A stretch of DNA of 35,118 nucleotides. It comes from an uncultured Candidatus Saccharibacteria bacterium (GTDB taxonomy: Bacteria > Patescibacteriota > Minisyncoccia > UBA6257 > GWB1-50-10). Location: assembly GCA_964534105.1 (NCBI GenBank), contig CAZHOF010000001.1, positions 13,126 through 48,243 on the forward strand. Direction: 5' to 3'. The notes under the pieces were generated by a model. It did not search any database. It was not told the DNA's origin and was given only the letters and a program-made list of their open reading frames with translations. The translations under genes and the position numbers were made by a program. Positions 3,663 to 27,323 of this stretch are shown piece after piece; position 1 is the first letter of the stretch; every line of letters starts with the position of its first letter.

Positions 3663-3730
3663 TCCCAAATCGGGTTCCGGACGAAAAGTAGCGGGATTGT
3701 GTCCTTTTACCTCAAACTTTGTTTTCGGGA
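3663..3730 (+). mobile_element. 68-nt insertion-like or intron-like element with TCCC...GGGA termini
   Basis: Starts TCCCAAAT and ends TTTTCGGGA; the termini are complementary. It is followed by TGTGG-GCGGTGAC, which resembles the TCGGGA-CAA-TGTGG-AGGTCACC junction at 27428. Confidence 0.35.
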
Positions 3731-3752
3731 TGTGGGCGGTGACTTTCGCCAA

Positions 3753-3894
3753 GCCCCTCACCTTTTCTTAATTTTCCGGCTATAATTTATATTAATTGCC
3801 GATGTAGCTCAGTTGGTAGAGCAACGCTTTCGTAAAGCGTGGGTCGTCGGTTCGAATCCGACCATCGGCTCATGATCGAGAAAAGGTGAGGGGC
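3753..3894. repeat. 15-nt perfect inverted repeat bracketing tRNA-Thr
   Basis: GCCCCTCACCTTTTC (3753-3767) and GAAAAGGTGAGGGGC (3880-3894) are exact reverse complements. They lie 30 nt upstream and 9 nt downstream of the tRNA. Confidence 0.85.
3798..3870 (+). tRNA. tRNA-Thr(CGT)
   Basis: Full cloverleaf: GCCGATG-TA-GCTC-AGTTGGTA-GAGC-A-ACGCT-TTCGTAA-AGCGT-GGGTC-GTCGG-TTCGAAT-CCGAC-CATCGGC-T. CCA is not encoded. A TATAAT lies at 3781-3786. Confidence 0.95.
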
Positions 3895-3972
3895 AAGCAA
3901 AGATTTCTCGGCCTGCCACGCTGATTTTGGAAAAATTGTGCGGGATTCGAATCTGGGAGGTAGCTCAAAGAA

Positions 3973-4677
3973 ATGACAAACATCGACTCGAATACAATTT
4001 CAATTTCTGTCCTGGCGGGTGCGGGCGGAGACGATGCGAAAGATTGGGCTCGTATGCTTATACGCATGTATGAGCGGTATTCCGTGCAAAAGGGATGGAA
4101 AGCAAGATTATTGAATGACACCACGTTGGAGGTGAAGGGCGAGGGCGTGTACGGGAAATTGAACAGAGAGTCCGGAGTGCATCGCTTAGTTCGCATCTCG
4201 CCCTTCGATGCGAAAAAACTGCGGCACACTTCCTTTGCGTTAGTTGAAGTTCTCCCGGAACTTCCCAATATAGAGGCAAGCCAAATCGCAATTCCAGAGA
4301 GAGACCTGAAAGTCGACTTCTCGCGTTCCGGAGGACCTGGAGGACAAAACGTAAATAAAGTTGAAACAGCGGTTCGTATCATGCATCTCCCAACGGGTCT
4401 CGTCGCGGCATCCCAAGCAGAACGATCGCAGGCAGGGAACAGGGAAATTGCCTTACGTCTTTTGAAGGCGAAACTCTTCCTCCTTATGGAAAAGAAGCAG
4501 GAGCGTGAACTTGCAAACCTGAAGACGAAAGTGCAGCCGGAGTGGGGTCATGAGATCAGGTCCTACGTTCTCCATCCCTACAAACAAATCAAAGATCACG
4601 AAACGGGAAAGAAAATGTCCCAAGCTGAAGAAGTACTCGAAGGCAATCTTGATTTATTATTTAAAAAACTGGGTTAA
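3973..4677 (+). CDS. prfB: Peptide chain release factor 2, short form lacking the N-terminal domain 1
   Basis: Contains AGAGGDDAKDWARML, the SPF motif (RISPFDAKK), the GGQ motif (SGGPGGQNVNKVETAVRI), and WGHEIRSYVLHPY. It is only 234 aa, and an in-frame TAG at 3961 prevents extension upstream. Confidence 0.85.
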   Translation: MTNIDSNTISISVLAGAGGDDAKDWARMLIRMYERYSVQKGWKARLLNDTTLEVKGEGVYGKLNRESGVHRLVRISPFDAKKLRHTSFALVEVLPELPNIEASQIAIPERDLKVDFSRSGGPGGQNVNKVETAVRIMHLPTGLVAASQAERSQAGNREIALRLLKAKLFLLMEKKQERELANLKTKVQPEWGHEIRSYVLHPYKQIKDHETGKKMSQAEEVLEGNLDLLFKKLG

Positions 4678-4731
4678 CGATGCTATACACTGCACGCTTA
4701 TTATGCTTTCTGCTATGATATAACTGCTTAT

Positions 4732-5427
4732 ATGATCATATTCCAAAACGTTGCGAAGGTGTATAACCATAATTCCGTTGCGCTTGATAAAGTAAGTTTT
4801 AAAATTCAACCCGGAGAATTCGTTTCCATTGTAGGAAGATCAGGTGCGGGCAAGTCTACGGTAGTAAAACTATTAATTGGAGAAGACAAACCCACAAAGG
4901 GCCAGGTCTTTTTTGATTCTTACGAGATAGGCAAATTGAAACCGGCACAACTCCCTGAATTGCGTAGGAGAATCGGCGTTATCTTTCAGGACTTTCGCCT
5001 CTTATCCCGAAAGACGGCTTTTGAAAACGTGTCCTTCGCGCTTGAAGTTGCCGGAAGGCCACAAAGAGAGATTTCCGAATACGTCCCGCAGGTTCTTGAT
5101 ATGGTGGGAATTAAAGGAAAGGCGCATAACTTTCCCGCGGAATTATCCGGAGGAGAAAAGCAGAGGGTTGCAATAGCGCGAGCAATGATTCATCGCCCTG
5201 ACGTTATCATCGCCGACGAACCGACGGGGAATCTTGACCCCTTCAATACGTGGGAGGTAATCAAGTTATTGAGTAAGATTAATGAATTGGGAAGCACGGT
5301 GATTTTAGCAACGCATGATAAGGAAATCGTAAACGCCTTGGGGCAGAGGGTGATTACCATGGACAACGGACGCATCGTGCGCGATGAAGCAAATGGTCGT
5401 TTTCTCATTGATCAAAATATTTCATGA
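4732..5427 (+). CDS. ftsE: Cell division ATP-binding protein FtsE
   Basis: ABC ATPase with Walker A (GRSGAGKST), signature LSGGEKQR and Walker B (IIADEPT). Its end overlaps the ftsX start (ATGA). Confidence 0.9.
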   Translation: MIIFQNVAKVYNHNSVALDKVSFKIQPGEFVSIVGRSGAGKSTVVKLLIGEDKPTKGQVFFDSYEIGKLKPAQLPELRRRIGVIFQDFRLLSRKTAFENVSFALEVAGRPQREISEYVPQVLDMVGIKGKAHNFPAELSGGEKQRVAIARAMIHRPDVIIADEPTGNLDPFNTWEVIKLLSKINELGSTVILATHDKEIVNALGQRVITMDNGRIVRDEANGRFLIDQNIS

Positions 5428-6332
5428 TTGTTTCTTTTCTCCGCATTATTCGATACGGCATGCAGGGTTTTCTGCGAAATGGATGGCTCTCGTTCTCAAC
5501 GGTGAGTATTATGATTCTTGCGGCGTTGGTATTCGAAGGGTTAATCCTTTTTAACGTTGTCGGCAAAACGGCGATCGATTCCATTCAGGACAAAATAGAT
5601 ATTAGTGTTTATTTCAAATCCAGCGTCTCCGAGGATTCAATATTGAATATAAAAAAATCGCTGGAGGGATTAAGCGAAGTAAAGGCGGTGCAATATGTTT
5701 CACGCGATCAGGCATTGGAAGATTTTAAGGCGCGACACGCAGGTGAAAGCGTGGTTACCCAAACACTTGAAGAACTAGACGAAAACCCATTACTAGCATC
5801 GTTAAACGTGAAAGCGCAGGATCCTCGGGAGTACGAAACTATAGCGAAGCATCTCTCCAATCAAAATCTTCAGGAATTTATTGAAAAGATAACTTACGCC
5901 CAGAACCAAATTGTCATCAACCGTTTGGTGGCGCTTGTTGACGCGCTGCGCCAGGGGGGATTTTTACTAACGCTGTTCTTCGCTTTTCTTGCCGCAGTAG
6001 TCACGTTCAATACCATTCGTCTTGCTATTTTCTCAAACAGTGAACAGATCGGCATTATGCGTCTCGTAGGGGCATCAAACGGTTTTATCAGAGGTCCGTA
6101 TATCGTGGAGGGAGTTCTCTATGGAATTATTGCCGGCCTCGTCGGGTTTCTTGTCTTCATCCCGCTTATCGGAATCGGGAGTCCCTATGTGGTAAAACTT
6201 ATTCCCGAGATGAATCTCCAAAACTACTTCAATGACAGTATGTTTTCTTTCTTGTTTTATCAACTCTTGTTTGGGGTTGGCCTGGGAATCCTCTCAAGTA
6301 TATTTGCGGTAAGGCGATATCTGCGCGTATAG
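5424..6332 (+). CDS. ftsX: Cell division permease-like protein FtsX
   Basis: 302 aa with an N-terminal TM helix, a periplasmic alpha/beta domain (ISVYFK..ALEDFK) and three C-terminal TM helices. It is coupled to ftsE. Confidence 0.85.
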   Translation: MIVSFLRIIRYGMQGFLRNGWLSFSTVSIMILAALVFEGLILFNVVGKTAIDSIQDKIDISVYFKSSVSEDSILNIKKSLEGLSEVKAVQYVSRDQALEDFKARHAGESVVTQTLEELDENPLLASLNVKAQDPREYETIAKHLSNQNLQEFIEKITYAQNQIVINRLVALVDALRQGGFLLTLFFAFLAAVVTFNTIRLAIFSNSEQIGIMRLVGASNGFIRGPYIVEGVLYGIIAGLVGFLVFIPLIGIGSPYVVKLIPEMNLQNYFNDSMFSFLFYQLLFGVGLGILSSIFAVRRYLRV

Positions 6333-6369
6333 CGCAGAAACGCTCTCCTACCGATTAAACCAGAAATAT

Positions 6370-6398
6370 TTGACAAAGACGGGCTCTTTTCCTATCTT
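6370..6398 (+). promoter_or_regulatory. Promoter of the str operon
   Basis: TTGACA, a 17-nt spacer, then TATCTT, about 35 nt upstream of rpsL. Confidence 0.5.
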
Positions 6399-6433
6399 TA
6401 CAAGGACGCTTGAAAAAAGCGGGATAACTTTTT

Positions 6434-6844
6434 ATGCCAACAGTTAGACAGCTGATTAAAAAAGGAAGGAAACGCACCGAAGAAAAGGATAAAACTCCGG
6501 CTCTCAGCCGTTATTTCAATTATCTCCGAAACAGGCCGGTTAACTCTCCGTCACCTTTTAAGCGCGGGGTGTGTCTTAAGGTTTTCACCACCACGCCGAA
6601 GAAACCGAACTCCGCCCTTCGGAAAGTGGCTCGCGTACGTCTTACGAACGGCATGGAAGTTACGGCATACATTCCGGGAGAGGGACACAATCTACAGGAG
6701 CATTCCGTGGTGATGATTCGGGGAGGCCGCGTAAAAGATCTCCCGGGAGTTCGCTATCATGTTGTGCGAGGGGTATTAGACACGGGAGGAGTGGAAAATA
6801 GGAAGCAGCAGAGATCGAAGTACGGATCAAAACGAGCGAAGTAG
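6434..6844 (+). CDS. rpsL: 30S ribosomal protein S12
   Basis: [49 protein letters not shown]. Confidence 0.97.
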
Positions 6845-6846
6845 CT

Positions 6847-7320
6847 ATGAGAAAAAGATCTTCCTATAAAAAGCAAGAATTGAAAGGGGATTCGGTGTAT
6901 GGGCGCGTTGATGTTCAACGCTTTATAAACTACCTGATGACGCACGGGAGAAAAATTGCCGCAGAAAAGAATTTCTACGGAGCCCTTGACCACGTAAAAG
7001 GAAAGGAAAAAGGAGATCCTGTTCAAATCTTCGAAAAGGCCATTGAAAACACAACCCCTCTTGTCGAGATAGTTTCGAAACGTATCGGAGGGGCGAATTA
7101 CCAAATTCCCCGGGAAGTACGTCCCGAGCGCCAATTTTTCCTCGCAGCCCACTGGATTATTAATGCCGCCCGCTCTGGAAAAGGGAAAGCAATGAAGGAA
7201 AAACTTGCCGAAGAGTTACTTGCAGCGGCGAAGAACGAAGGATCGGCTATTAAAAAGAAATTAGATACGCACCGCATGGCGGAGGCAAACCGGGCGTTTG
7301 CTTCCTTGATGCGCCGTTAA
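6847..7320 (+). CDS. rpsG: 30S ribosomal protein S7
   Basis: S7 motifs (GGANYQIPREVRPERQ, KKLDTHRMAEANRAF) and its position after rpsL. Confidence 0.95.
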   Translation: MRKRSSYKKQELKGDSVYGRVDVQRFINYLMTHGRKIAAEKNFYGALDHVKGKEKGDPVQIFEKAIENTTPLVEIVSKRIGGANYQIPREVRPERQFFLAAHWIINAARSGKGKAMKEKLAEELLAAAKNEGSAIKKKLDTHRMAEANRAFASLMRR

Positions 7321-7329
7321 GATAGATTT

Positions 7330-9474
7330 ATGCCCAGAATTTACCCCATTGATCGCGTGAGGGATATAGGTATTATCGCCCACATTGATGCCGGAAAGAC
7401 GACAGTGTCTGAGCGTGTTTTATTTTATACCGGCATTTCACATCGCATCGGAGAGGTGCATGAAGGGCAAGCGATTATGGATTGGATGGAGCAGGAGCGC
7501 GAACGTGGTATTACCATCACCTCTGCTGCAACAACCTGTTTCTGGATTCCTTCTTATGAAAGAGTCAAGGCGGGCGACGATCAGGAAAAGCTTGCAGAGA
7601 TAAAAAAAGAAGTTGAACATCGCATCAACATCATCGACACGCCGGGACACATTGACTTCACTGTCGAGGTAAAGCGCTCATTGCGCGTTTTGGATGGTGC
7701 GGTCGTGGTGTTTGACGGGGTCTCCGGGGTTGAGCCGCAGTCCGAAACAAACTGGAGGTATGCCGACGAATTCAAAGTTCCGCGCATCTGCTTCATTAAT
7801 AAATTAGACAGAACGGGAGCAAGCTTCGATGGCAGTTTGAAATCGATTCATGACCGGTTGACGCCAAACGCCGTCGCGCTCCAAATACCCATTGGTCTCG
7901 AGAGCGACTTCTCCGGTGTCGTCGATCTTTTGGAAGAGAAAGCCCTCTTCTTCGAAGGGGAGAAGGGAGAAAAAATCGTCACGAAAGAAATCCCTGAAGC
8001 GTTACAGGAAGAAGTAAAAAAGCGTCGGAGCGAATTAGTGGAAAAGATAGCCGAGACCGACGATAAACTCATCGCCGATTTCCTTGAAGGGAAAGAAATT
8101 CCGGTTGATCTGCTGAAAAAAGCGCTCCGCAAAGCAACTCTTGAGGTAAAGCTCATCCCGGTGTTATGTGGTTCCGCCTTGAAAAACAAGGGTGTGCAGC
8201 TGCTTCTTGATGCTGTCGTGGATTATCTTCCTTCCCCGGCCGATCTGCCTCCTGTTAAGGGAATAAATCCTAAGAAACACGAAGAAGAAGAACGAAGCTC
8301 GAAAGATGACGCCCCGCTTTCTGCGTTGGCGTTCAAGATCGCTTCGGACCCGTTTGTGGGAACATTAACGTACATCCGTATCTACTCCGGGACGCTCAAA
8401 CGAAGTAGTTATATATTGAATACCACAAAGAACGAGCAGGAACGCATCGGGAGGATTCTTCGCATGCATGCAAACCATCGCGAAGAAGTCGAAGAAATGT
8501 ACGCCGGAGACCTTGGTGCCCTTGTGGGTATGAAAAATACGACAACGGGAGACACACTAACTGTTCCGGAGCAGCCGATTATCCTTGAGAAAATTACTTT
8601 CCCTGAACCAGTCATCGACATTCGTATCGAACCGAGAACAAAAGCCGATCAGGAGAAAATGGGCGTTGCACTTCACAAGCTTGCTGATGAAGATCCGACA
8701 TTTCGGGTGAGCGGCGATCCCGACTCGGGAGAAACACTCATTGCCGGCATGGGAGAGCTGCACCTGGAAATCATCGTTGAGCGTATGAAGCGCGAGTTCG
8801 GCGTAGAGGCGGACGTGGGACGCCCACAGGTCGCGTATAAGGAAACGATAAAAGGAGAAGCGGAAGCAGAAGGAAAATATATCAGGCAATCCGGTGGGAG
8901 AGGTCAGTACGGTCACGTAAAACTCCGCGTTGAGCCGCTTGAACGCGGCAAGGGATTTGAATTTGTTAATGAGATTAGGGGAGGAGTCATTCCGCAAGAG
9001 TTCATTCCGGCTGTTGAAAAAGGTGTCCGTGAAGCGATGGAGAAGGGCGTCCTTGCAGGATATCCGCTCGTGGATACCCAGGCCGCGCTGTTTGACGGTT
9101 CGTTCCACGAAGTAGATTCCTCGGAGATCGCCTTTAAGATCGCTGCAGGCATGGCGTTTCAGGAAGCAATTCGCAGGGCAAAACCCGTGCTCCTTGAGCC
9201 GATCATGAAGGTGCAGGTCATTATACCCTCGGAATTTCTTGGAGATGTTACCGGCGATTTAAGCTCTCGCAGAGCGAAAATTAACGCAATGGACGAGCGT
9301 AGTAATGTGCGTGTCGTTGATGCGGAAGTTCCTCTTGCGAGCATGTTCGGATACGTTACCAACCTTCGTTCAATGACCCAGGGAAGAGGAAGCTTCTCTA
9401 TGGAATTTTTCGCTTACGAGGAGGTTCCTGTAAATGTTACGCAAACCATTGTCGAGGGTCGGAAAAAGGAGTAA
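7330..9474 (+). CDS. fusA: Elongation factor G
   Basis: [22 protein letters not shown] and full EF-G domains II-V. 714 aa. Confidence 0.97.
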
Positions 9475-9573: not shown

Positions 9574-10770
9574 ATGGCAAAGGATCAATTTAAACGGGAA
9601 AAACCCCACGTAAACGTAGGAACTATTGGTCACGTTGACCACGGTAAGACTACGCTTACGGCAGCGATTACGCACGTTCTGCACCTTAAAGGATTTGCGG
9701 GAAAGGAAGAGTCCGTCGACCAGATTGATAATGCTCCTGAAGAAAAAGCACGCGGCATTACTATTGCGCTTCACCATTCCGAATACGAATCGGAAAAGAG
9801 ACACTATGCGCATATTGATGCCCCCGGTCATGCTGACTACATTAAAAACATGATCACGGGAGCAGCTCAGATGGACGGCGCTATTCTTGTTGTTTCTGCT
9901 GCTGACGGCCCCATGCCTCAGACGCGAGAACATATTCTGCTCGCCCGACAGGTTGGCGTTCCTGCAATTATTGTCTTCCTGAATAAGGTTGACATGGTTG
10001 ACGACAAGGAATTGGTTGATTTGGTTGAGTCCGAGGTTCGAGAGCTTCTAAAGAAATACGGTTTTCCGGGGGATGAAACTCCGATAATCCGGGGTTCAGC
10101 ATTGAAAGCGCTCGAAGCGGTTTCTGCTGACGACGAAACTGCGAAGCCGATCGGGGAACTTATTGACGCCCTTGACTCCTTCATTCCGGATCCGGTTCGT
10201 GATATCGACAAACCGTTTTTGATGCCCATTGAGGATATTTTCTCAATCGAAGGACGTGGCACTGTGGTAACTGGTCGCATCGAGCGGGGTATCGTAAAAG
10301 TAAACGAGGAGGCCGAAATCATCGGTCTTCGCCCCACGCAAAAGACGGTAGTAACCGGAGTTGAGATGTTCCAAAAAACGCTTGATGAAGGTCAGGCGGG
10401 GGACAATGTCGGTATCCTCTTGCGGGGCCTCAAAAAAGAGGACGTGGAACGCGGTCAAGTTATCGCGAAACCGGGTTCTGTGACGCCTCATACGGAATTT
10501 GAAGCCGAGGTCCTTATCTTAAGCAAAGAAGAGGGCGGACGTCACACCCCTTTCTTTAAAGGATATAAACCTCAATTCTACCTTCGCACAACCGACGTAA
10601 CCGGAGAGGTATTCCTCCCGGAGGGTACGGAAATGGTTATGCCGGGAGACACAGTAAGCATAAACGTGAAGCTTATGGCTCCCGTTGCGCTTGAAGAAAA
10701 ACAACGTTTTGCTATCCGAGAAGGAGGTAAAACAGTTGGCGCCGGGACCATCACGAAGATTACAAATTAG
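9574..10770 (+). CDS. tuf: Elongation factor Tu
   Basis: [26 protein letters not shown], and full length of 398 aa. Confidence 0.98.
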
Positions 10771-11318: not shown

Positions 11319-11768
11319 ATGATGAAATTACAAGGAGAAAAAATAAGGATGTCGCAGGTGTGGAAAGATGACCGTGTCGTTCCCGGAACGCGTGTTAAGA
11401 TTGCGGTTAAAAACGAACAAGATGAAGAAGCGTGGAAAACGCTTGAAGAAGGATCCCGCGTGATAGTAAGCGGGAAGAGTAGGGGAAAGGGATTTCAGGG
11501 AGTGGTAAAAAGACACGGGTTTAAAGGAGGACCAAAAACTCACGGGCAGAAAGATCGGCTTCGTGCCCCGGGATCCATTGGTGTCACAGCCACCCAACGC
11601 GTGATTAAGGGGAAGAAAATGGCGGGACACATGGGAAATGTGAGAGTAACCACAAAAGGATTGCTTGTCGTTGAGCGTGATGACAAAACCAGAGAAGTTT
11701 TTATAAAAGGAGCAGTGCCCGGGGTCCCCGGCGGAACCATTGAAATTCGTTTTGAGAAAAAAACATGA
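11319..11768 (+). CDS. rplC: 50S ribosomal protein L3 (short, internally deleted form)
   Basis: KSRGKGFQGVVKRHGF, PGSIG, KGKKMAGHMG, KGAVPG. An ATG at 11319 follows the attenuator. The TTG-started ORF from 11292 would include the terminator T-run. Confidence 0.9.
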   Translation: MMKLQGEKIRMSQVWKDDRVVPGTRVKIAVKNEQDEEAWKTLEEGSRVIVSGKSRGKGFQGVVKRHGFKGGPKTHGQKDRLRAPGSIGVTATQRVIKGKKMAGHMGNVRVTTKGLLVVERDDKTREVFIKGAVPGVPGGTIEIRFEKKT

Positions 11769-12399: not shown

Positions 12400-12804
12400 A
12401 TGGGTATTTTCAAGGCATTCAAAAAAAAGGACGGAGAAAAGCAAAAAACCGCTCCCAAGGAGGGTGTAGTTGCATTGCCTAAAAAAGACGCTGCCCCCGG
12501 AGCAAAAGCTTCCGGAGTAACGTCACGGATTGGGTTTGTTCTCAAAAAACCTCATATCAGCGAGAAAGCAAACGATATAAGTGCCACCGCGGGTCAATAT
12601 ATTTTTATCGTCGATGCGCGGGCGACAAAACCCATGGTTCGGCAGGCTGTCCAGGAGCGTTATGGAGTGAACGTAGAGGGCGTGAATATAATAAGAAAGA
12701 TTGGAAAAACAAAGCGTCTCGGCGGTCGCTTTTTAGGGAGGAGATCAGAGGTGAAAAAAGCTATTGTTTCTCTGAAGAAAGGGGAAAAAATAGATATCAC
12801 GTAA
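12400..12804 (+). CDS. rplW: 50S ribosomal protein L23 (with an N-terminal extension of about 45 aa)
   Basis: The C-terminal two thirds match L23 (KPHISEKA..YIFIVDARATKPMVRQAVQERYGV.V..VN). Position between rplD and rplB. Confidence 0.9.
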   Translation: MGIFKAFKKKDGEKQKTAPKEGVVALPKKDAAPGAKASGVTSRIGFVLKKPHISEKANDISATAGQYIFIVDARATKPMVRQAVQERYGVNVEGVNIIRKIGKTKRLGGRFLGRRSEVKKAIVSLKKGEKIDIT

Positions 12805-22033: not shown

Positions 22034-22795
22034 ATGATACGTCTAAAGACGAAGGATGATATAGAGCGGTTACGGAAATCGGGAGCCCTGCTTGCGGGCG
22101 TTCTTGAGGAAATAAAACAAAACGCCCTTCCCGGAGTTTCTCTTGCTGATCTGGACCGCATTGCGGAGGAGTATATCAAAAAGGCGGGGGCGAAACCCGC
22201 TTTTCTCGGGTATGTTCCGGAAGGAGCCCAGGAACCGTATCCGGCCTCGTTATGCGCCTCATTGAACGATGTGGTAGTTCACGGTATCCCTTCGGCATAT
22301 ACGCTTCGTGAAGGCGATGTGTTATCCATTGATCTGGGAGTTGATCTTGAAGGGTTTATTACGGATGCTGCAATAACAATAGGCGTTGGAAAGATAGCAA
22401 GGGAACATCAGGAGTTGATAACGACAGCAGAGCGTGCTCTTGAAGCAGCAATTACTGTATGTGTGCCGGGAAATCATCTCGGAGATATCGGTTTTGCAAT
22501 CGAAAATAAAGTAAGGACAGCGGGATTTTCCGTTGTGCGAGGTCTTACGGGTCATGGAGTCGGCTTTAATCTCCATGAGGACCCGGTGGTGTATAACTAC
22601 GGAACGCAGAAAACCGGATTGGAGTTACGGCCCGGACTCGTTTTAGCACTTGAGCCGATGATTAGTACGGGGTCAGGATCAGTCGAGGAGATGAAGGATG
22701 GAAGCTTCAAAACAAAAGACGGGAGTATAACCGCTCATGTTGAACACACGGTTGCGGTTACAAATGAAGGTCCGGTTGTGTTAACGAAGAACTAG
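22034..22795 (+). CDS. map: Methionine aminopeptidase, type I
   Basis: KT..DIE.LR.SG, VVHGIP, D.G.......D.A.T..VG, GHG.G...HE.P, EPM....G, HVEHTV.VT. Confidence 0.95.
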   Translation: MIRLKTKDDIERLRKSGALLAGVLEEIKQNALPGVSLADLDRIAEEYIKKAGAKPAFLGYVPEGAQEPYPASLCASLNDVVVHGIPSAYTLREGDVLSIDLGVDLEGFITDAAITIGVGKIAREHQELITTAERALEAAITVCVPGNHLGDIGFAIENKVRTAGFSVVRGLTGHGVGFNLHEDPVVYNYGTQKTGLELRPGLVLALEPMISTGSGSVEEMKDGSFKTKDGSITAHVEHTVAVTNEGPVVLTKN

Positions 22796-24798
22796 TCCTC
22801 TTGATCCTGAGAAGCTGCTTCTTCGCCAATTTCTTTGGGCTTGCTCCAAGACGCATAGTCGCAATCAGGGTATCTGTTGCAACCATAAAACATGCGGCGC
22901 TTTTTCGTTCTCTTTTTTACAACCTCTCCCTTCTTGCACTTTGGACAGGGACCAAGAGGTTCCTGGGGATTTCCAAGTGATTTCGTACTTTTACATTCAG
23001 GAAAACCGGTACAGGCAAGAAATCTGCCGAAGCGCCCGGTTTTTACAACCATCGGCTTTCCGCATTTCTCGCATACCTCATCGGTTTTCTCTTCCGGAGG
23101 AAGAATGTCATCCTTTGAAACCTCTTCGTATTTCTTTTCCAGATGCTTTGCGAAAGGTTCGTAAAACTTGCGGATTGCCTTGCGCCATTCCAAATTCCCT
23201 TCGGCAATCGCATCCAACTCTTCTTCAAGCCGGGCGGTAAATCCAACATCAACGATTTCAGGAAAGTGTTCTTTGAGAAGGCGATTTACAAGCGTGCCGA
23301 TTTCAGTCGGTTCAAAGCGCCGAGATTCGTTTTTCTGAACATAATTGCGAAGTTGGATAACTGAAATGATTGGGGCATATGTGGAAGGACGCCCGATACC
23401 GAAGGTCTCGAGAGCTTTAATAATACTCGCTTCGTTGTAGCGGGGAGGAGGTTCCGTAAAATGCTGCTCCGGATTTACCGCAATGACCGAAAGGACATCT
23501 CTGCGAGTTATGTTTGGAAGAGTACGCTCCTCGAATTTTTGAGGCCAAACTTTGAGAAAGCCGTCAAACACAAGAGTTGTTCCGTTAGCCCTTAAAAGAT
23601 ATTCGTTTTTCTTGTGTTCCACGGAAACAGAAATGGTGGTTGCACTGAACTGGGCCTGCGGGAGCTGCGAGGCAATAAATCGGCGCCAAATAAGTTCATA
23701 CACCTTGCGTTCGGCGGCTTGGGAAAATTCCTTTCCGAGCGATTCCGGCGTACGCGCAGGATCCGTAGGACGTATGGCCTCATGGGCTTCTTGTGCGAGG
23801 CGGGATTTTACTTTGAAAACCCTCGGTTTTTCGATAAGGTAATCCTTGCCCCATTCGTGTTGAATAAAGCGACGCGCAGCGCTTAAAGATTCCTGCGAAA
23901 GATTGAAGGAATCGGTACGCATATAGGTGATATGACCGTTTTCATACAAGCTTTGGGCCGCGCGCATGGTTTGACGTGCACTCAGGCGAAGCTTTCGGTT
24001 CGCCTCCTGTTGCAGGGTGCTGGTGATAAATGGAGGGAGTGGATTCCGTTTCACTGTTTTTTGCGTTATATCATTTATGGAAACAGAACCGTTCTGGATG
24101 TCGTCAGCGATAATGTTTACCTCTTTTTCGGTCGCAATACCGGGCTTCGGGAGCGATTCCTTATTTATGCTGTGAAGTGCTGCGGTAAAGGATTCCTGCC
24201 CCCCTTCTTTCTGAAAATCGGCGGTAAGCGTCCAATATTCTTCGGGCTTGAAACGTTGTATCTCTTCCTCGCGATCGGCAATAAGGCGGAGCGCAACAGA
24301 TTGTACGCGTCCTGCCGAAAGTCCGCGTACAACTTTTTTCCAAAGGAATGGAGAAAGAAGATAGCCTACCAAACGGTCGAGAATACGGCGGGCTTGTTGG
24401 GCATTTACAAGGCTTATGTTCAGCTGTCGGGGGTGTTCCAAGGCGCTCTGAAGAGCATCCTTCGTAATCTCATGAAAGACGATGCGTTCTGTCTTGTCGG
24501 TTGCAAGATCAAGCGCCTGGGTAAGGTGCCAGGCAATAGCTTCCCCTTCGCGATCTTCGTCAGTAGCGAGGACAACCTCGTCCGCAGAAGCCGCCTTTTT
24601 CTTTAAGGCGGTGACCGTTTTCCGAACTTTTGTGGGAATAACGTATTGGGGAGAAAAATCTTCGTCTACGTCAATGCCGAGCTTGCTCTTTGGAAGGTCG
24701 CGAATATGGCCGTAGGAAGAAGTTACCTCGTAATCACTGCCAAGGAACTTACTGATGGTCTTTGCTTTAGTAGGTGATTCTACAATGACTAGTTTCAT
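22792..24798 (-). CDS. topA: DNA topoisomerase I
   Basis: MKLVIVESPTKAKTISKFLG (TOPRIM), ATDEDREGEAIAWH, HITYMRTDS (active-site Tyr region), and two C-terminal zinc ribbons (CEKCGKPM..C, CPKCKKG..C). Its stop overlaps the map stop by 4 nt (convergent). Confidence 0.97.
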   Translation of the reverse strand: MKLVIVESPTKAKTISKFLGSDYEVTSSYGHIRDLPKSKLGIDVDEDFSPQYVIPTKVRKTVTALKKKAASADEVVLATDEDREGEAIAWHLTQALDLATDKTERIVFHEITKDALQSALEHPRQLNISLVNAQQARRILDRLVGYLLSPFLWKKVVRGLSAGRVQSVALRLIADREEEIQRFKPEEYWTLTADFQKEGGQESFTAALHSINKESLPKPGIATEKEVNIIADDIQNGSVSINDITQKTVKRNPLPPFITSTLQQEANRKLRLSARQTMRAAQSLYENGHITYMRTDSFNLSQESLSAARRFIQHEWGKDYLIEKPRVFKVKSRLAQEAHEAIRPTDPARTPESLGKEFSQAAERKVYELIWRRFIASQLPQAQFSATTISVSVEHKKNEYLLRANGTTLVFDGFLKVWPQKFEERTLPNITRRDVLSVIAVNPEQHFTEPPPRYNEASIIKALETFGIGRPSTYAPIISVIQLRNYVQKNESRRFEPTEIGTLVNRLLKEHFPEIVDVGFTARLEEELDAIAEGNLEWRKAIRKFYEPFAKHLEKKYEEVSKDDILPPEEKTDEVCEKCGKPMVVKTGRFGRFLACTGFPECKSTKSLGNPQEPLGPCPKCKKGEVVKKRTKKRRMFYGCNRYPDCDYASWSKPKEIGEEAASQDQED

Positions 24799-24998
24799 GA
24801 TGATGGCGATGGTTTTTGTCCCGCCACTTTACGAGCGGAGCGAGTATAAAGTGGGCGAGGATCCCGCTTATATCCCGATGCAAATCTTGCAATAGTGTCT
24901 TGACAGAAAGTGGCGGGATCACGTCCATTAACCTCCCGCATGGCGGATTGGGATATGGGCGGGACTTTAGTAGGTGATTCTACAATGACTAGTTTCAT
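24765..24998 (-). repeat. 34-nt perfect direct repeat of the topA start (period exactly 200 nt)
   Basis: 24765-24798 and 24965-24998 are identical (CTTTAGTAGGTGATTCTACAATGACTAGTTTCAT). On the minus strand this is ATG plus the first 11 codons of topA. Confidence 0.95.
24819..24964 (-). mobile_element. 146-nt insertion-like or intron-like element interrupting an upstream duplicate of the topA 5' end
   Basis: In topA sense it starts TCCCGCC and ends GGCGGGA (7-bp complementary termini). The flanks are ..ACTAAAG^ and ^CAAAAACCATC. The native gene reads ..ACTAAAG-CAAAGACCATC. Confidence 0.45.
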
Positions 24999-25019: not shown

Positions 25020-25922
25020 TTATAATTGACTTTGGATAGAGAAAACACCCCCCGGCTTTTCCTCGACGACTCCCTTCATAATCAATGGGGTGAGTTTTTG
25101 ATTTATAATCCATGGTTCCTTTCCCGTCAATGCGACGAGCTGATCAAGGGTATGTCCGGAACCCGATTCTTGAAGAAGAGAACACAACTCACGCTCTTCC
25201 TGGGAAAGAGACGGAAGGGGAACACGGGAAGGAGATTGGGCATCCGCCATAAAAGAAAACTCTCCCTGCAAATCCTCCATGATATCAGCAAGTGAAGAAA
25301 CAAGACGCGCTCCGGTTCTGATGAGATGGTGTGAGCCGGTGTAATGAGCATGCCCGGCGGGACCCGGAAAAACGAAAACATCACGGCCGTGCTCTGCGGC
25401 AAGACGCGCGGTTACAAGAGCCCCGGAGTGAACAGGAGCTTCAATAACAATGGTAGCGAGAGCGAGTCCGGCAACAATCCGGTTCCGTTCAAGGAAATGA
25501 TGGGGAAGCGCGGGAGTGCTCACGGGATATTCCGAGAGAAGCCCGCCGTTTCGCTCCAGGATCTTTAAAGCAAGACGTTCGTGATAAACCGGATAGATGC
25601 TATCAAGACCGTTTGCAAGCACGGCAAAGGTTGTGCCGCCGCCCTCAAGCGTTCCTTCATGTGCTGCGGCGTCAATACCGAAGGCGAGCCCGCTTACGGA
25701 GCCGAATCCGCGTTCTGCGAGTTCTCGGGCAATGCGCCGTGCGAGTGAAATTCCATCCCGGGTCGCTTTACGCGTGCCGACGATTGCAAAAAGAGCAGGC
25801 GTCGGATCAGGAAGAGATCCTCGATAATAAAGAATCTGCGGGGGAGCTGCAATTTCCTGGAGTGGCGGCGGATAACCGGGAGAATTGATGTGGATTTCGT
25901 TGATAGTCGGCTGAAAATCCAT
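25020..25922 (-). CDS. dprA: DNA processing/protecting protein DprA (Smf)
   Basis: ILYYRGSLP, AIVGTRKAT..G...A, SGLA.GIDAAAHEG.L, T.AVLA.GLD.IYP. Common dprA-topA synteny. Confidence 0.92.
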   Translation of the reverse strand: MDFQPTINEIHINSPGYPPPLQEIAAPPQILYYRGSLPDPTPALFAIVGTRKATRDGISLARRIARELAERGFGSVSGLAFGIDAAAHEGTLEGGGTTFAVLANGLDSIYPVYHERLALKILERNGGLLSEYPVSTPALPHHFLERNRIVAGLALATIVIEAPVHSGALVTARLAAEHGRDVFVFPGPAGHAHYTGSHHLIRTGARLVSSLADIMEDLQGEFSFMADAQSPSRVPLPSLSQEERELCSLLQESGSGHTLDQLVALTGKEPWIINQKLTPLIMKGVVEEKPGGVFSIQSQL

Positions 25923-26475: not shown

Positions 26476-26480
26476 CCATC

Positions 26481-26711
26481 ATGCAAAAAGCACTGGAGAA
26501 AATAAAAGCATTTTTTAAAGAGGACTCCCGGCAGCTCGTTTTTTATGGAATGGCTCTCGTTTTCGCGATTACTACCCTTTGGTTTGTAATCTATGCCGCC
26601 TCTTTTCTCGCTGATAGCTTGGAAACAGTTTTTAACACAGTTCCTGTCACGAGCCAAAACACAACCGCGTTTGACATGGCTGGATTTGAGCAGCTAAACT
26701 TGAACCGATAA
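26481..26711 (+). CDS. Small hypothetical single-pass membrane protein
   Basis: 76 aa with TM helix LVFYGMALVFAITTLWFVIYAASF. Lies 5 nt after the previous gene. Confidence 0.45.
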   Translation: MQKALEKIKAFFKEDSRQLVFYGMALVFAITTLWFVIYAASFLADSLETVFNTVPVTSQNTTAFDMAGFEQLNLNR

Positions 26712-26715
26712 ATTC

Positions 26716-26787
26716 GGGCGTGTAGTTCAGTGGTAGAACGCTGTCCTGATAAGACAGAGGTCGATGGTCCGATTCCATCCACGCCCA
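26716..26787 (+). tRNA. tRNA-Ile(GAT)
   Basis: GGGCGTG-TA-GTTC-AGTGGTA-GAAC-G-CTGTC-CTGATAA-GACAG-AGGTC-GATGG-TCCGATT-CCATC-CACGCCC-A. CCA is not encoded. The T-loop reads TCC where TTC is usual. Confidence 0.9.
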
Positions 26788-26850
26788 CACGAATTTTCTC
26801 CGAGCGGAGCGAGGCAAGGAAATTCAGTGCCCGCCTGAGGCGGGCAACAT

Positions 26851-27093
26851 ATGCACTTTGTTTATGTGTTGAAAAGTACACGGGATGGCCATCGCTATGT
26901 TGGAAGCGCGAATGACGTGGAACGCCGTTTTCGAGAACACCAGCGCGGCAAAGTAAGCTCGACAGAACAGCGGCGACCCCTTATGCTTCTATACAGCGAG
27001 TGCTATACCACTCAAAAAGAAGCACTACAGCGGGAACAGTTTCTGAAGTCCGGAAAGGGGAGACAGTGGCTTGATGCAAGAGGGATACGGTAG
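26851..27093 (+). CDS. Small GIY-YIG nuclease family protein (YhbQ/UPF0213-like)
   Basis: 80 aa: FVYVLKS..DGHRYVGSANDVERRFREHQRGK...T...RP..LLYSE.Y....EAL.RE..LKS. Confidence 0.8.
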   Translation: MHFVYVLKSTRDGHRYVGSANDVERRFREHQRGKVSSTEQRRPLMLLYSECYTTQKEALQREQFLKSGKGRQWLDARGIR

Positions 27094-27126
27094 CTCGCCA
27101 AAGAGCAATAACAGAAAGTTGTAATA

Positions 27127-27161
27127 GGCCCCGTAGCTCAGTTGGTAGAGCACTACATTTG
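27127..27161 (+). pseudogene. tRNA-Ala-like 5' half, ending inside the anticodon
   Basis: GGCCCCG-TA-GCTC-AGTTGGTA-GAGC-A-CTACA-TTTG, then non-tRNA sequence TCCCGAT. Confidence 0.7.
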
Positions 27162-27211
27162 TCCCGATATTGTTCAAATTTTTCAAATTTGATTACAATA
27201 TCGAGGATCCT

Positions 27212-27320
27212 CGATAACTTTGGTGGGCCCGTAGCTTAGTTGGTAGAGCGCCACATTTGCAATGTGGAGGTCACCGGTTCGAATCCGGTCGGGTCCACCA
27301 TGGGCCCACCAAAGTTATCG
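27212..27320. repeat. 19-nt perfect inverted repeat bracketing tRNA-Ala
   Basis: CGATAACTTTGGTGGGCCC (27212-27230, including the first 6 nt of the tRNA) and GGGCCCACCAAAGTTATCG (27302-27320). Confidence 0.9.
27225..27300 (+). tRNA. tRNA-Ala(TGC), CCA encoded
   Basis: GGGCCCG-TA-GCTT-AGTTGGTA-GAGC-G-CCACA-TTTGCAA-TGTGG-AGGTC-ACCGG-TTCGAAT-CCGGT-CGGGTCC-A-CCA. G3:U70 is present. Confidence 0.95.
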
Positions 27321-27323
27321 GGA

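Follow-up and report, generated by a model that had tools for sequence, protein, structure and literature searches.

Four inserts in the 35,118-nt stretch of DNA analysed here (the window), designated E1, E2, E3 and Z, are probably degenerate or ORF-less copies of hairpin-bounded mobile cassettes acting at the level of DNA. In its complete form, a cassette has two neighbouring long hairpins with feet that are variants of TCCCGA/TCGGGA. Hairpin 1 holds a minimal Slx1-like GIY-YIG nuclease gene (81-102 aa), and hairpin 2 an entire tRNA-Ala(UGC) gene, with the stem coaxial with the acceptor stem of the tRNA. Insertion is precise and follows the rule TTNG^C without duplication of the target, most often between positions 35 and 36 of tRNA-Ala genes, where the anticodon loop is palindromic (TTG^CAA). 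The element therefore appears to supply a substitute for the gene broken by its own insertion. An earlier description of hairpin cassettes splitting tRNA-Ala was not found in the literature.

Cassettes in metagenomes

The cassette architecture, its recurrence and its association with GIY-YIG genes were demonstrated by a metagenome scan for a junction pattern that cannot occur in an intact tRNA. The scan identified 63 metagenome stretches, with 16 distinct loci of identical plan; as the pattern was limited to ..GGGA/CAA plus a tRNA 3' half, other targets are under-sampled. On the hairpin a side, the outer tRNA-Ala 5' half (..TTTG) is followed by TCCCGA, a stem enclosing either a loop or a GIY-YIG ORF, and TCGAGGA. 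On the hairpin b side, TCCTCGA precedes a leader, a complete tRNA-Ala, a trailer and TCGGGA, which abuts the outer 3' half (CAA..). Both junctions were present in 14 of the 16 loci; 5 loci have a GIY-YIG ORF inside hairpin a and 9 are ORF-less. The genes flanking the loci are unrelated housekeeping genes. The putative host range is CPR (ultra-small) bacteria, in which the family would be widespread.

The same 16-nt central palindrome and two-hairpin order occur in all 16 independent loci, whose stems are unrelated in sequence, and covariation of the stems was demonstrated using RNAalifold, which gave compensatory changes in 23 of 49 pairs with the UCCCGA/UCGGGA helix invariant. The cognate partner ranked first in 9/14 loci for stem b and 8/14 for stem a, with energies of -17.4 and -20.5 kcal/mol, respectively, as compared with about -10 kcal/mol for non-cognate pairs. 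Folding asymmetry between sense and antisense was absent.

Deletion of the insert in silico restored an ARAGORN-positive outer tRNA-Ala in 8-9 loci. About half of the outer tRNAs are still perfectly matched, in part as judged by eye, which is expected of recent insertion but equally of spliced genes. Identity between inner and outer tRNAs is the same within loci (0.82/0.77) as between loci (0.80/0.76), and hence the inner tRNA cargo is foreign. Since the inner tRNA bears the target sequence of the outer tRNA in several loci, it is unprotected, a point against the cassette reading. Loci L122 and L132 include several levels of nesting, and in L131 two different tRNA genes each carry, at TTAG^CTCAG, 32-nt units that are nearly identical.

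Copies in the window

Locus 3 includes E3 and Z, together with complete and partial tRNA-Ala genes:

27127..27161, + strand, 5' half of the outer tRNA-Ala, up to G35, in which C3 replaces G3; direct repeat D2
27162..27207, + strand, E3 hairpin a (TCCCGATATTGT..ACAATATCGAGGA), ORF-less
27208..27224, + strand, E3 hairpin b 5' arm and leader (TCCTCGATAACTTTGGT); inverted repeat, covariation across loci
27225..27300, + strand, inner intact tRNA-Ala(TGC) with G3:U70 and encoded CCA; ARAGORN, Rfam tRNA 75 bits
27301..27323, + strand, E3 hairpin b 3' arm and trailer (TGGGCCCACCAAAGTTATCGGGA), right foot at its end; inverted repeat
27324..27363, + strand, outer tRNA-Ala 3' half (from C36); direct repeat D1
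27364..27433, + strand, Z, right side of an additional layer of element, with CTCCTTGTTCTTCGGGA at its end; L101 and L124 have homologues
27434..27473, + strand, orphan tRNA-Ala 3' half; D1, 39/39 identical to the 3' half of the inner tRNA

The 162-nt insert described here by the earlier note is a real element, but the complete tRNA-Ala(TGC) inside it had been overlooked. A perfect 19-bp inverted repeat (27212-27230 / 27302-27320) encloses this gene, which is the likely cargo or replacement gene, and TGGT in the leader is complementary to ACCA. E3 hairpin a corresponds to the hairpin in which other loci carry the GIY-YIG ORF. In the outer tRNA-Ala, C3:T70 abolishes the G3:U70 pair whichever of the two candidate 3' halves is used. 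The half at 27324-27363 pairs with the 5' half in the anticodon stem (CTACA/TGTAG) and leaves two acceptor-stem mismatches, and fusion of 27127-27161 to 27434-27473 also yields an ARAGORN tRNA-Ala. Three tRNA-Ala 3' halves are thus present in the window. A tRNA-Thr gene in the window is likewise enclosed, by a perfect 16-bp inverted repeat.

Locus 2 lies at the 5' end of topA:

24765..24798, - strand, 5' end of the intact topA (34 nt, codons 1-11 plus G); 34/34 match in direct repeat D11
24799..24818, - strand, diverged copy of topA codons 12-18 (CAAAAACCATCGCCATCATC), right flank of E2; 13/20 identical to CAAAGACCATCAGTAAGTTC
24819..24861, + strand, E2 hairpin a (TCCCGCCACTTT-loop-AAAGTGGGCGAGGA), ORF-less
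24862..24964, + strand, E2 hairpin b (TCCCGCTTATATCCC..GGGATATGGGCGGGA) with a 73-nt interior, not tRNA-like
24965..24998, - strand, displaced copy of the topA 5' end, upstream; exact 34-nt copy of codons 1-11

The topA gene (22792-24798, minus strand) is intact, with its Pfam domains recovered, and is not interrupted as had been claimed; the insert lies between the 34-nt upstream copy and the 20-nt diverged copy. The displaced copy holds the native position directly after dprA, and 24765-24798 would represent a 'replacement' 5' end, within which the target TCTTTG^CTTTAG (+ strand) is intact. A 67-aa read-through ORF (24795-24998) begins in the displaced copy, and the stop of this uORF overlaps the topA start as ATGA. 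In strain L081, the displaced and downstream copies differ at 6/34 positions, mostly third codon positions. The length of E2, 146 nt, is not divisible by 3. The element probably lies antisense to topA, and its insertion is compensated by the duplicated topA start. The coordinates given earlier for a minus-strand E2 hold, but the + strand reading (TTTTTG/TCCCGCCAC..) matches the family plan better, the left junction TTTG/TCCCGCCAC being the same as in L114. The loop of hairpin a, CGAGCGGAGCGAG, recurs upstream of the GIY-YIG gene, though a 13-mer is weak evidence. The interior of E2 had no significant match to tRNA-type elements, and E2 is assigned putatively to the family by its feet, centre and plan.

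Locus 1 contains E1, a fossil element:

3631..3662, + strand, 5' half of a decayed tRNA-Ala-like gene, left flank of E1; CCTTAGCTCAGCTGGTAGA 19/19 match
3663..3730, + strand, E1 (TCCCAAA..TTTCGGGA), degenerate; 29-nt block common with E2

None of 300 shuffles scored as high as CCTTAGCTCAGCTGGTAGA against tRNA-Ala 5' halves. The 3' flank is unrecognisable, and E1 folds no better than its shuffles (z=0.14). E1 is fixed in the population; in strain L167 it is 6.6% diverged, with the right terminus worn to CGTGG.

The three elements and the orphan junction lie exactly where the earlier note placed them and have the termini that it gave, and the unambiguous junctions bear out its statement that no target base is duplicated. 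Its insertion site G^CAA gives way to TTNG^C across the family, and E1 is not at G^CAA. Nor are the interiors unrelated, since E1 and E2 share the 29-nt block (p<=0.003), while E2 and E3 have GGATCCTCG in common and follow one two-hairpin plan.

Chance occurrence and empty sites

Chance occurrence of TCCC/GGGA ends, which the earlier note named as a possible refutation, is not borne out: GTCCCG-N130-160-CGGGAC matches the window twice (E2 and E3) against 0.01 expected, and 0/100 shuffles reach two matches. GGATCCYCG occurs 5 times against 0.6 expected. Further copies were found at the 16 metagenome loci and empty-site alleles in relatives; absence of both would have refuted the proposal of the earlier note. 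The topA site is empty in L089 (a 98.8%-identical strain, DprA 99%), and E2 is absent from the empty topA sites of L091-L094 (82%) and L095 (65%). The tRNA-Ala gene is uninterrupted in L095 and L001. Presence/absence polymorphism at the topA site is therefore demonstrated inside a 99% population.

The GIY-YIG nuclease

One nuclease gene lies beside locus 3:

26851..27093, + strand, GIY-YIG nuclease gene, 80 aa; Pfam PF01541, E 3e-16

Its product is 37-44% identical to the element-encoded ORFs (E 1e-16 to 1e-22), and the closest PDB structures are 1zg2 and 1ywl, which are classed as minimal bacterial Slx1-family domains (PMC1564403). It is of the minimal bacterial Slx1-like/UPF0213 type. The two GIY-YIG genes had been mentioned earlier as a side remark, but this one is not incidental and is the key to the element, its family being encoded inside full-length copies. 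It is a candidate trans-acting enzyme. None of the window elements holds a nuclease gene, and this one is outside E3 with no hairpin feet recognisable around it, which weighs against the cassette reading. It is missing between tRNA-Ile and tRNA-Ala in L095. L117 has an ORF-less element with a GIY-YIG gene 0.9 kb away. A protein-first search retrieved only one other homologue, P0123 (46%), which adjoins a tRNA-Ala followed by tandem 3' tRNA parts linked by hairpins. Recognition of TTNG^C by an 80-100 aa GIY-YIG protein without a DNA-binding domain is hard to see, which counts against the nuclease reading.

Alternative explanations

The inserts could instead belong to a new class of RNA intron, in which the terminal UCCCGA/UCGGGA helix joins the exon ends, an endonuclease and a ligase (e.g. 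RtcB) excise the insert and the GIY-YIG protein is a homing endonuclease. The site in the anticodon loop, as for bacterial group I and archaeal introns, the architecture resembling an intron with a homing endonuclease gene, the invariant closing helix lengthened by the flanking G35:C36, the outer tRNAs recovered by ARAGORN and the perfect acceptor stems of several of these, including G3:U70, are all in keeping with splicing. However, no Rfam intron or ribozyme model matched at E<=1, the last base is G in the 5' exon and A in the insert, contrary to the group I rule (U...G), group II splice-site rules are also broken, and a bulge-helix-bulge (BHB) cannot be drawn. The cut sites would be directly opposite in the helix, an arrangement that no RNA-splicing endonuclease (EndA, RNase III) is known to use. 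A complete inner tRNA-Ala, superfluous for a spliced intron, is present in every nested locus, and in the window an intact replacement copy is found beside each interrupted gene. In the window (C3:T70) and in L098, L107, L111, L131 and L132, the outer halves show truncation, chimeric composition or mutation. The length and orientation of E2, offset by the duplicated gene start, and the lack of folding asymmetry also disagree with splicing. An intron is hence unlikely, and the small intron class suggested by the earlier note found no positive support. It is likewise improbable that the inserts are scars rather than self-contained units, left where a free-standing GIY-YIG endonuclease breaks tRNA-Ala (occasionally other) DNA time and again, and error-prone, recombination-dependent repair adds palindromic filler, partial duplications and segmental amplifications. 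Such scars would account for the tandem and nested partial duplications in L112, L159 and the window's 3' halves, for E1, which resembles a mosaic of 13-15-mers copied from other parts of the genome, and for L095, where an intact tRNA-Ile comes after an interrupted partial copy with quite different insert termini; segmental amplification driven by SegB offers a precedent (PMC13096335). Random repair would not, however, give constant TCCCGA/TCGGGA termini across 16 independent loci, and neither the central palindrome, the hairpin order and the compensatory changes in unrelated stems nor the 32-nt units at the matching position of two tRNA genes are expected from it.

Very little probability is given to host structures for tRNA processing, termination or regulation of tRNA-Ala or topA, with tRNA halves as incidental duplications. 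The tRNA-Thr inverted repeat, the coaxial stem b and the ATGA overlap, which resembles translational coupling, agree with a host role, but the elements are polymorphic within the 99% population, missing from the relatives at 82% and 65%, linked to a nuclease ORF of selfish type, nested in other tRNA genes and inserted in coding sequence. Non-autonomous derivatives of IS200/IS605, REP/RAYT or IS110 type, or remnants of tRNA-targeting integrase islands, are just as doubtful. The unduplicated short specific target and hairpin ends would suit transposons, and direct repeats of tRNA 3' halves resemble att-site footprints. Yet no transposase, integrase, HUH or DEDD enzyme was found in any of the ~16 loci, no TnpA, TnpB, RAYT, DEDD or integrase gene lies inside or next to them, and GIY-YIG is the only ORF inside full-length copies. 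The feet form the actual termini instead of lying subterminally with offset cleavage sites, and 5' and 3' halves are both duplicated and nested, unlike attL/attR. Thus, the earlier note's site-specific mobile element with precise, duplication-free insertion and non-autonomous window copies is supported, but not its IS200/IS605 or IS110 style.

Proposed mechanism and known systems

For a mobile DNA cassette, the GIY-YIG nuclease would cut the empty target and/or the hairpin feet, and the cassette would spread via recombinational repair, i.e. homing; the gene at 26851-27093 may move or maintain the window copies in trans. Simple double-strand-break-repair homing does not predict such exact ends at unrelated targets (topA, D stem), which call for an end-defined insertion step and count against the cassette reading. 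Replacement copies are demonstrated, and the broken host gene would be functionally replaced by the copy or gene end arriving with the cassette. Locus 3 would have gained an entire tRNA-Ala in this way, and locus 2 another 5' end for topA. As the carried tRNA has the same target, it could be re-invaded, giving nested and tandem arrays of tRNA halves.

In supplying a substitute for the displaced gene, the cassette resembles mitochondrial mobile endonuclease ORFs, which bring a foreign gene end and oust the native one (PMC3630166). As a putatively nuclease-driven element, it is also comparable to phage SegB. This GIY-YIG endonuclease, encoded by a free-standing gene within a tRNA cluster, cleaves tRNA DNA and brings about tandem amplification that depends on recombination (PMC2330249, PMC13096335).

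Termini and content of the elements in the window

The three short inserts, E1, E2 and E3, and an orphan right junction were confirmed in the coordinates and ends that an earlier note had drawn from the sequence alone. Comparison of empty and occupied sites likewise bore out its claim that no target base is duplicated, and the junctions are unambiguous. The elements and the associated tRNA-Ala segments are as follows.

3663-3730: E1, short insert
24819-24964 (minus strand): E2, short insert
27127-27161: outer tRNA-Ala of the E3 locus, 5' half
27162-27323: E3, short insert
27225-27300: complete tRNA-Ala(TGC) inside E3
27324-27363: outer tRNA-Ala of the E3 locus, 3' half
27364-27433: Z, spacer with a further element layer
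27434-27473: third tRNA-Ala 3' half, identical to the inner tRNA of E3 at 39/39 positions

The termini are conserved beyond chance. The pattern GTCCCG-N130-160-CGGGAC occurs twice in the window (E2 and E3) against an expectation of 0.01, and two occurrences were reached in 0/100 dinucleotide shuffles of the window. The motif GGATCCYCG, which forms the centre of E2 and E3, is present five times in the window (0.6 expected). The interiors had been described as unrelated, but a 29-nt block is common to E1 and E2, and both GGATCCTCG and a layout of two successive hairpins recur in E2 and E3. A shorter pattern, TCCCG-N8-38-CGGGA, gave 8 matches in the window (1.2 expected), five of them within coding genes; the matches listed are 1917-1949, 6160-6180, 6741-6787, 10616-10647 and 11454-11475. 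This excess may reflect codon usage or tiny hairpin inserts.

The complete tRNA-Ala(TGC) gene inside E3 (ARAGORN; 75 bits with Rfam), which was overlooked in the earlier note, is located at the tip of a perfect 19-bp helix formed by 27212-27230 and 27302-27320. Hence, one tRNA-Ala gene is nested in the anticodon loop of another. The fold of the whole E3 locus has z = -8.3. The outer 5' half at E3 carries C3, and the G3:U70 alanine identity pair is thus lost with either candidate 3' half, which predicts that the outer tRNA-Ala gene of the window genome is a pseudogene.

E1 is a fossil element. A decayed tRNA-Ala 5' half (19/19 match) flanks it on the 5' side, its fold is not superior to that of shuffled sequence, and the copy in strain L167 has diverged by 6.6% and has a right end that has decayed. 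Three segments of E1 (3668-3682, 3691-3703 and 3701-3715) recur elsewhere in the window as exact matches: 15-mers in dprA (25154-25168, minus strand) and around rpsH (17677-17691, minus strand), and a 13-mer at 30691-30703. Such a content of short matches was equalled by 3 of 1500 random 68-nt segments. The dprA-like 15-mer, in which five positions differ in strain L167, looks as if it were a short copied-in patch.

Two further observations were made downstream of E1. The tRNA-Thr gene (3798-3871), together with a TATAAT-like sequence, lies within a perfect 16-bp inverted repeat (3753-3768, GCCCCTCACCTTTTCT, and 3879-3894, AGAAAAGGTGAGGGGC), and no TCCCGA feet, the ends typical of the elements, were found at this repeat (window 3753-3894). 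The release-factor gene at 3973-4677 matches the C-terminal part of the PCRF domain only and is probably prfB with a programmed +1 frameshift, the N-terminal part being located upstream in another frame.

E2 and the topA locus

E2 had been taken to interrupt topA, but the working gene is intact and the insert lies upstream of it. On the minus strand, the order is upstream topA copy, E2, diverged copy and working gene.

24965-24998: exact 34-nt copy of topA codons 1-11, at the native position directly after dprA
24819-24964 (minus strand): E2
24799-24818: diverged copy of topA codons 12-18
22792-24798 (minus strand): working topA

An ORF of 67 aa starts in the upstream topA copy and crosses E2, the 146 nt of which are not divisible by 3. 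The stop codon of this ORF and the start codon of topA overlap in the sequence ATGA; protein searches with this read-through ORF gave matches in its own species only. On the plus strand, the site reads TTTTTG^CTTTAG when occupied and TTTTCG^CTTTAG when empty. The 73-nt interior of hairpin b, the second hairpin of E2, was considered as a decayed tRNA-Ala and rejected, showing no significant similarity (p 0.1-1.0). E2 may be placed in the family by its ends, centre and plan rather than by similarity of its interior.

Empty and occupied sites in related genomes

Based on DprA, the organism belongs to the Patescibacteria/CPR, the best species representatives being ~50% identical. Closer relatives by DprA were present in a large protein collection (99%, 82% and 65%) and their contigs were compared; the exact DprA product of the window had no record, and the 99% cluster was used in its place. 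Empty sites, for which the earlier note had proposed to look in relatives, were found for both topA and tRNA-Ala. In the 82% (L091-L094) and 65% (L095) relatives, topA directly follows dprA with neither an element nor a duplicated 5' end. Within the 99% population, the topA site is occupied in the window and in contigs L081-L088 versus empty (..ACTAAAG^CGAAAAC..) in L089, which is 98.8% identical over dprA, the range of identity being 98.8-99.8%. Divergence is locally raised near E2, where L089 has 89.9% identity versus about 99% elsewhere, and the upstream and downstream topA copies of L081 differ at 6/34 positions, mostly third codon positions. The raised divergence around E2 is a pattern that would be expected of recombination tracts or co-conversion.

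The tRNA-Ala gene is uninterrupted beside tRNA-Ile in L095 and in contig L001, and there is no GIY-YIG gene between the two tRNA genes in L095. At the DprA loci of GTDB representatives, no similar elements were found in CPR relatives at 40-50% identity, and the matches obtained were chance matches in high-GC genomes. Short exact duplications in contigs L001 and L014 were assessed as further cases and dismissed as assembly or masking artefacts because they flank runs of N.

In the 65% relative, L095, tRNA-Ile and its leader are also partly duplicated upstream (7780-7960, minus strand), and the D loop of this partial copy is split by a hairpin-rich insert of ~78 nt with termini that differ from those of the family; an intact tRNA-Ile then follows. 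Contigs of four sister strains (L082, L084, L086 and L088) end in or beside the tRNA-Ile/GIY-YIG/E3 region (window about 26760-27220), that of L084 beginning at the E3 central palindrome. These repeated contig ends suggest that repeats or strain heterogeneity break the assemblies.

Recurrence of the architecture in metagenomes

Further copies, which the earlier note had suggested searching for, were found in many different metagenomes: 63 stretches (52 non-redundant) match a 22-base pattern, GGGACAA N6 GGTC N3 GGTTCRANTCC, that combines the right junction with the anticodon stem, variable loop and T arm. An intact tRNA is unable to match this pattern, as U33 would need to be G. The pattern is biased to ^CAA and to tRNA 3' halves.

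One architecture is present in 16 distinct loci, including the window, and both junctions are present in 14. The outer 5' half (..TTTG) is followed by TCCCGA, stem a, either a short loop or an ORF of 81-102 aa, stem a' and TCG(A)GGA. The second hairpin then consists of TCC(T)CGA, a leader, a complete tRNA-Ala(TGC), a trailer and TCGGGA, after which the outer 3' half begins with CAA. Because TGGT, with which the leader terminates, is complementary to ACCA, stem b and the acceptor stem of the inner tRNA are coaxial. Inserts with the ORF (L098, L107, L110, L127 and L131) are 369-400 nt long, and the nine without it, E3 among them, are 130-162 nt. A 16-nt central palindrome, ATCGAGGATCCTCGAT, is exact in many loci, and the central motif is found almost exclusively at tRNA-Ala loci; a CGGGATCCCG site in contig L004 lies within a coding gene and was rejected as a chance match. 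After removal of the insert in silico, ARAGORN calls a tRNA-Ala in 8 loci; acceptor-stem pairing was judged from ARAGORN calls and by reading of the stems. Elsewhere, truncation, chimerism or additional inserts affect the outer halves, and outer halves are decayed in six loci. Identity of inner and outer tRNAs within a locus (0.82/0.77) is no higher than between loci (0.80/0.76), so the cargo usually looks foreign to the host gene; an origin of the inner tRNA as a fresh local duplicate of the outer was therefore rejected, except in L107. No transposase, integrase or reverse transcriptase was found among the nearest flanking ORFs of ten loci, which are unrelated housekeeping genes.

Variants of the arrangement are also present. 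The window spacer Z has homologues in L101 and L124, several levels of nesting are seen in L122 and L132, and L114 has TCCCGCC-type feet as in E2. In L131, the D stem of the outer tRNA-Ala carries TCCCGA..TCGGGA hairpins of 24-33 nt at TTAG^CTCAG. A partial tRNA-Ile copy, after which an intact tRNA-Ile is found, has a near-identical 32-nt unit in the same position. The G^CAA target proposed in the earlier note is not a general rule, since curated junctions (TTTG^CAA, TTAG^CTC and TTCG^C, with E2 also read on the plus strand) give TTNG^C. Curated junctions were used for this rule because a generic TCCCG..CGGGA hairpin finder was too noisy for a target logo.

Three observations concern the matched contigs. 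In L100 (about 12400-12700; also in L148), hairpins (..GCGGGATCCTC..) lie after tRNA-Val(TAC) together with a second copy of its 3' half, which starts at C36 and has the junction TTA^CAA. It follows that the family is not limited to tRNA-Ala. The GIY-YIG/tRNA-Ala element of L127 (3845-4244) lies ~1.9 kb upstream of a 23S rRNA gene (6128-9122), at the tRNA-Ala of the rRNA operon spacer. Six pattern matches (L096, L102, L106, L119, L097 and L153) have TGATGA, which is C-box-like, just upstream of GGGA^CAA, and by eye are probably archaeal intron-containing tRNAs outside the family.

Covariation of the stems

The stem sequences are wholly different between loci, and complementary within each. When stem halves were paired across loci, the cognate partner ranked first in 9/14 loci for stem b and 8/14 for stem a, with pairing energies of -17.4 and -20.5 kcal/mol, respectively, versus about -10 kcal/mol for non-cognate pairs. 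RNAalifold found compensatory changes in 23/49 pairs; the closing helix, UCCCGA/UCGGGA, does not vary and is lengthened by the G35:C36 pair beside it. No strand asymmetry (G·U versus A·C), a marker of RNA-only structure, was found; sense and antisense strands fold equally, and covariation is thus no specific pointer to RNA.

The GIY-YIG proteins

The ORF in hairpin a of the five full-length elements encodes a GIY-YIG protein, with the start codon in stem a. One of the two nearby GIY-YIG genes remarked on in the earlier note (26851-27093) belongs to the same family. It is located 34 nt upstream of the outer tRNA, outside the window's own element copies, and its product is 37-44% identical to the element ORFs (E 1e-16 to 1e-22). 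The 80-aa product matches Pfam PF01541 over residues 1-69 and thus consists of a GIY-YIG domain with no auxiliary domain, and a group I intron endonuclease model gave a weak, sub-threshold match. The closest PDB entries are the 'hypothetical UPF0213 proteins' 1zg2 (E 9e-7) and 1ywl (E 3e-6), which have been assigned to the bacterial Slx1 family (PMC1564403). Eukaryotic Slx1 is described as a structure-selective nuclease acting on branched DNA. By analogy, such selectivity would fit an element built of hairpins. A literature search for UPF0213/YhbQ returned nothing.

A word-index search with the window protein identified at least two clusters. The other homologue retrieved, P0123 (46% identity), is from another metagenome (L159, 1684-2110), and its gene abuts tRNA-Ala(CGC). 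This tRNA is followed by at least two tandem 74-nt units, each consisting of a spacer, a TCCGCC..GGCGGA hairpin and the 3' part of the tRNA from AGGTC. In L117, a GIY-YIG gene of the family (434-1021) lies 0.9 kb from an ORF-less element, its GIY-YIG domain being fused in frame to a truncated inorganic pyrophosphatase (residues ~30-111); the fusion looks like an endonuclease ORF inserted in the 5' end of ppa.

The second GIY-YIG gene of the window (33518-33814) is of a different, UvrC-like kind. It lies in a region (28000-34000) with a G+C content of 0.35-0.40 versus about 0.47, where genes of zinc-ribbon/DUF805 and trypsin-like type are also located. The region may be a foreign island.

Nature of the elements

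An RNA intron would suit the position of the insert, the presence of a closing helix and the perfect matching of several outer tRNAs. This explanation is nevertheless unlikely. Rfam searches (E<=1) of the window elements and four full-length elements gave no intron or ribozyme, only the inner tRNAs scoring. The boundary bases break the group I rule, which requires U at the end of the 5' exon and G at the end of the intron, as all junctions read ..G^TCCCG....CGGGA^C... No bulge-helix-bulge (BHB, 3-4-3) could be drawn by inspection of predicted and consensus structures, both cut sites being directly opposite each other at one helix end. Ubiquity of the inner tRNA and decay of outer halves also argue against splicing, and E2 is frame-breaking, probably antisense and accompanied by a compensating duplication. 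If the loci were repair scars of a free-standing endonuclease, the duplications and the patchwork of 13-15-mers in E1 would be accounted for, but conservation of ends, centre and order across 16 loci would be left unexplained, and we regard this origin as improbable.

Hairpins for processing or regulation by the host have very little probability, since the polymorphism and gene content of the loci speak against them. The same evidence makes HUH-, IS110- or integrase-type elements highly improbable. The short, specific target TTNG^C without a duplicated base is as in IS200/IS605, a style suggested in the earlier note, but the full-length copies (n=5) encode GIY-YIG rather than Y1 HUH TnpA/TnpB, the flanking ORFs are housekeeping genes, and the TCCCGA/TCGGGA feet form the outermost bases of the element rather than part of subterminal hairpins with offset cleavage sites. 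The IS110 style named alongside it is not supported either, as no locus has an ORF for a DEDD recombinase. Empty and occupied sites differ by no target-site duplication of the kind that defines MITEs. An integrase island would have a tyrosine or serine recombinase gene, which is absent, and direct repeats limited to the 3' part of the tRNA. Here, the duplication extends to 5' halves, and one tRNA gene is nested in another. Features of homing cassettes are present, namely a GIY-YIG ORF inside the inserts (five loci, not the window's copies) and both occupied and empty alleles in close genomes.

We therefore favour hairpin-bounded DNA cassettes associated with a GIY-YIG nuclease and a spare tRNA-Ala. 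The loci display a recurrent architecture, covarying stems, an associated nuclease, duplication-free junctions, presence/absence polymorphism and nesting, and in the window an intact replacement lies beside each interrupted gene. In the mechanism that we infer, the nuclease would cut the empty target and/or the hairpin feet, and the cassette would be copied into the broken alleles by recombinational repair, that is, by homing. The host would survive because the cassette supplies its own tRNA-Ala or a new topA start. As the carried tRNA includes the same target, it would be re-invaded, giving rise to Russian-doll and tandem arrays. The ends are precise even at unrelated targets (topA and the D stem), which suggests that insertion involves more than plain homing, namely a step in which the ends are defined. 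A bolder and doubtful possibility is a new class of prokaryotic DNA transposon that has hairpin feet as its ends, is recognised and cut there by a minimal, structure-selective Slx1-like GIY-YIG nuclease instead of a transposase or recombinase, inserts in the centre of another hairpin or palindrome such as the tRNA anticodon arm and compensates the damage by carrying a spare essential gene; a variant of it would be a new class of protein-dependent bacterial tRNA intron defined by these hairpins. In the transposon case, the stand-alone bacterial GIY-YIG proteins (UPF0213), a large family, would gain a role in selfish elements.

No prior description of the nested tRNA-Ala arrangement was found in the CPR literature searched, where introns of group I/II that carry homing endonucleases are described solely from rRNA genes (PMC11270868, PMC10714607). 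If the cassette reading is correct, this would be the first selfish nuclease cassette of a bacterial chromosome that breaks an essential tRNA gene and brings a replacement, a strategy already documented for mitochondrial mobile ORFs and, loosely, phage SegB. It would also account for the abundance of small GIY-YIG genes in CPR/Patescibacteria and for their puzzling halves of tRNA genes and tRNA genes nested in one another. Annotation of tRNAs and assembly in these genomes would be misled, because contigs break here and interrupted genes are missed. The tRNA-Ala anticodon arm (CCACATTTGCAATGTGG) and the hairpin-foot junctions would provide a testable substrate for bacterial Slx1-like GIY-YIG proteins, and the cassettes a natural system of horizontal tRNA gene replacement. 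Transposase-free insertion at TTNG^C with defined hairpin ends could reveal new insertion chemistry.

Comparison with known systems

Group I introns with homing endonuclease genes occur in bacterial tRNA anticodon loops, with an optional ORF, sporadic distribution and ORF-less derivatives. All of these features recur here, but the ribozyme core is absent, the boundary nucleotides are wrong, and a spare gene, not self-splicing, apparently offsets the cost of insertion. Palindromic elements derived from IS200/IS605 and REP/RAYT are hairpin-based, have a short specific target without target duplication, are mostly ORF-less and are mobilised in trans. The present elements resemble them in hairpins, short target, lack of duplication and a predominance of ORF-less copies, and differ in having GIY-YIG in place of Y1 HUH, feet at the very ends, and a location inside genes with cargo. 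Double-hairpin elements and GC-rich palindromic clusters of fungal mitochondrial DNA are reportedly small mobile units of two hairpins (Paquin et al. 2000, cited in PMC3787672). Their host genomes have many endonuclease ORFs of the GIY-YIG and LAGLIDADG types, and they are not known to carry cargo. The two-hairpin plan may be a likeness to the present elements, but there is no sequence relationship.

Archaeal BHB tRNA introns are short, protein-free and mobile between tRNA genes, and split tRNA halves are held to each other by complementary leaders (PMC10714607 and established background). Short inserts in tRNA genes and complementary leaders are likewise found here, but no BHB can form, insertion is at 35/36 instead of 37/38 and in a bacterial host, and the insert contains a complete tRNA and a nuclease gene.

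SegB of phages T4/T6 is a free-standing endonuclease that cleaves tRNA-containing DNA, is co-inherited with the tRNA genes on either side and causes segments of tRNA genes to be amplified in tandem by a recombination-dependent process (PMC2330249, PMC13096335). As here, a GIY-YIG gene lies beside tRNA genes (PMC2330249, PMC13096335). However, SegB is larger and I-TevI-like with a DNA-binding part, its gene is intergenic rather than within a tRNA gene, and there are no hairpin-bounded modules, nested tRNA or defined element ends.

Mitochondrial mobile endonuclease ORFs (mORFs) are the closest known system, with SegB next. They create 'hybrid genes' in Allomyces (atp6) and Glomus (atp6, atp9, cox2 and nad3) (PMC3630166). 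In mORFs, an endonuclease cassette (GIY-YIG in the case of atp9) in an essential gene brings a foreign copy of the displaced portion, and a remnant of the native portion stays adjacent; most differences between the duplicated portions are synonymous, and presence or absence varies among close isolates (PMC3630166). The present elements resemble mORFs in this plan, and the copy that they bring may likewise be foreign. The replaced part is the 5' end in topA, whereas it is the 3' end in mORFs. Unlike mORFs, the present elements belong to a bacterial chromosome, usually target a tRNA gene, carry a whole gene as cargo and form nested copies, and their modules are hairpin-bounded with defined feet and a nuclease of ~80 aa. 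The new features are the bacterial chromosomal tRNA target, the whole tRNA within a tRNA, the hairpin-bounded modules with defined feet and the minimal Slx1-like enzyme.
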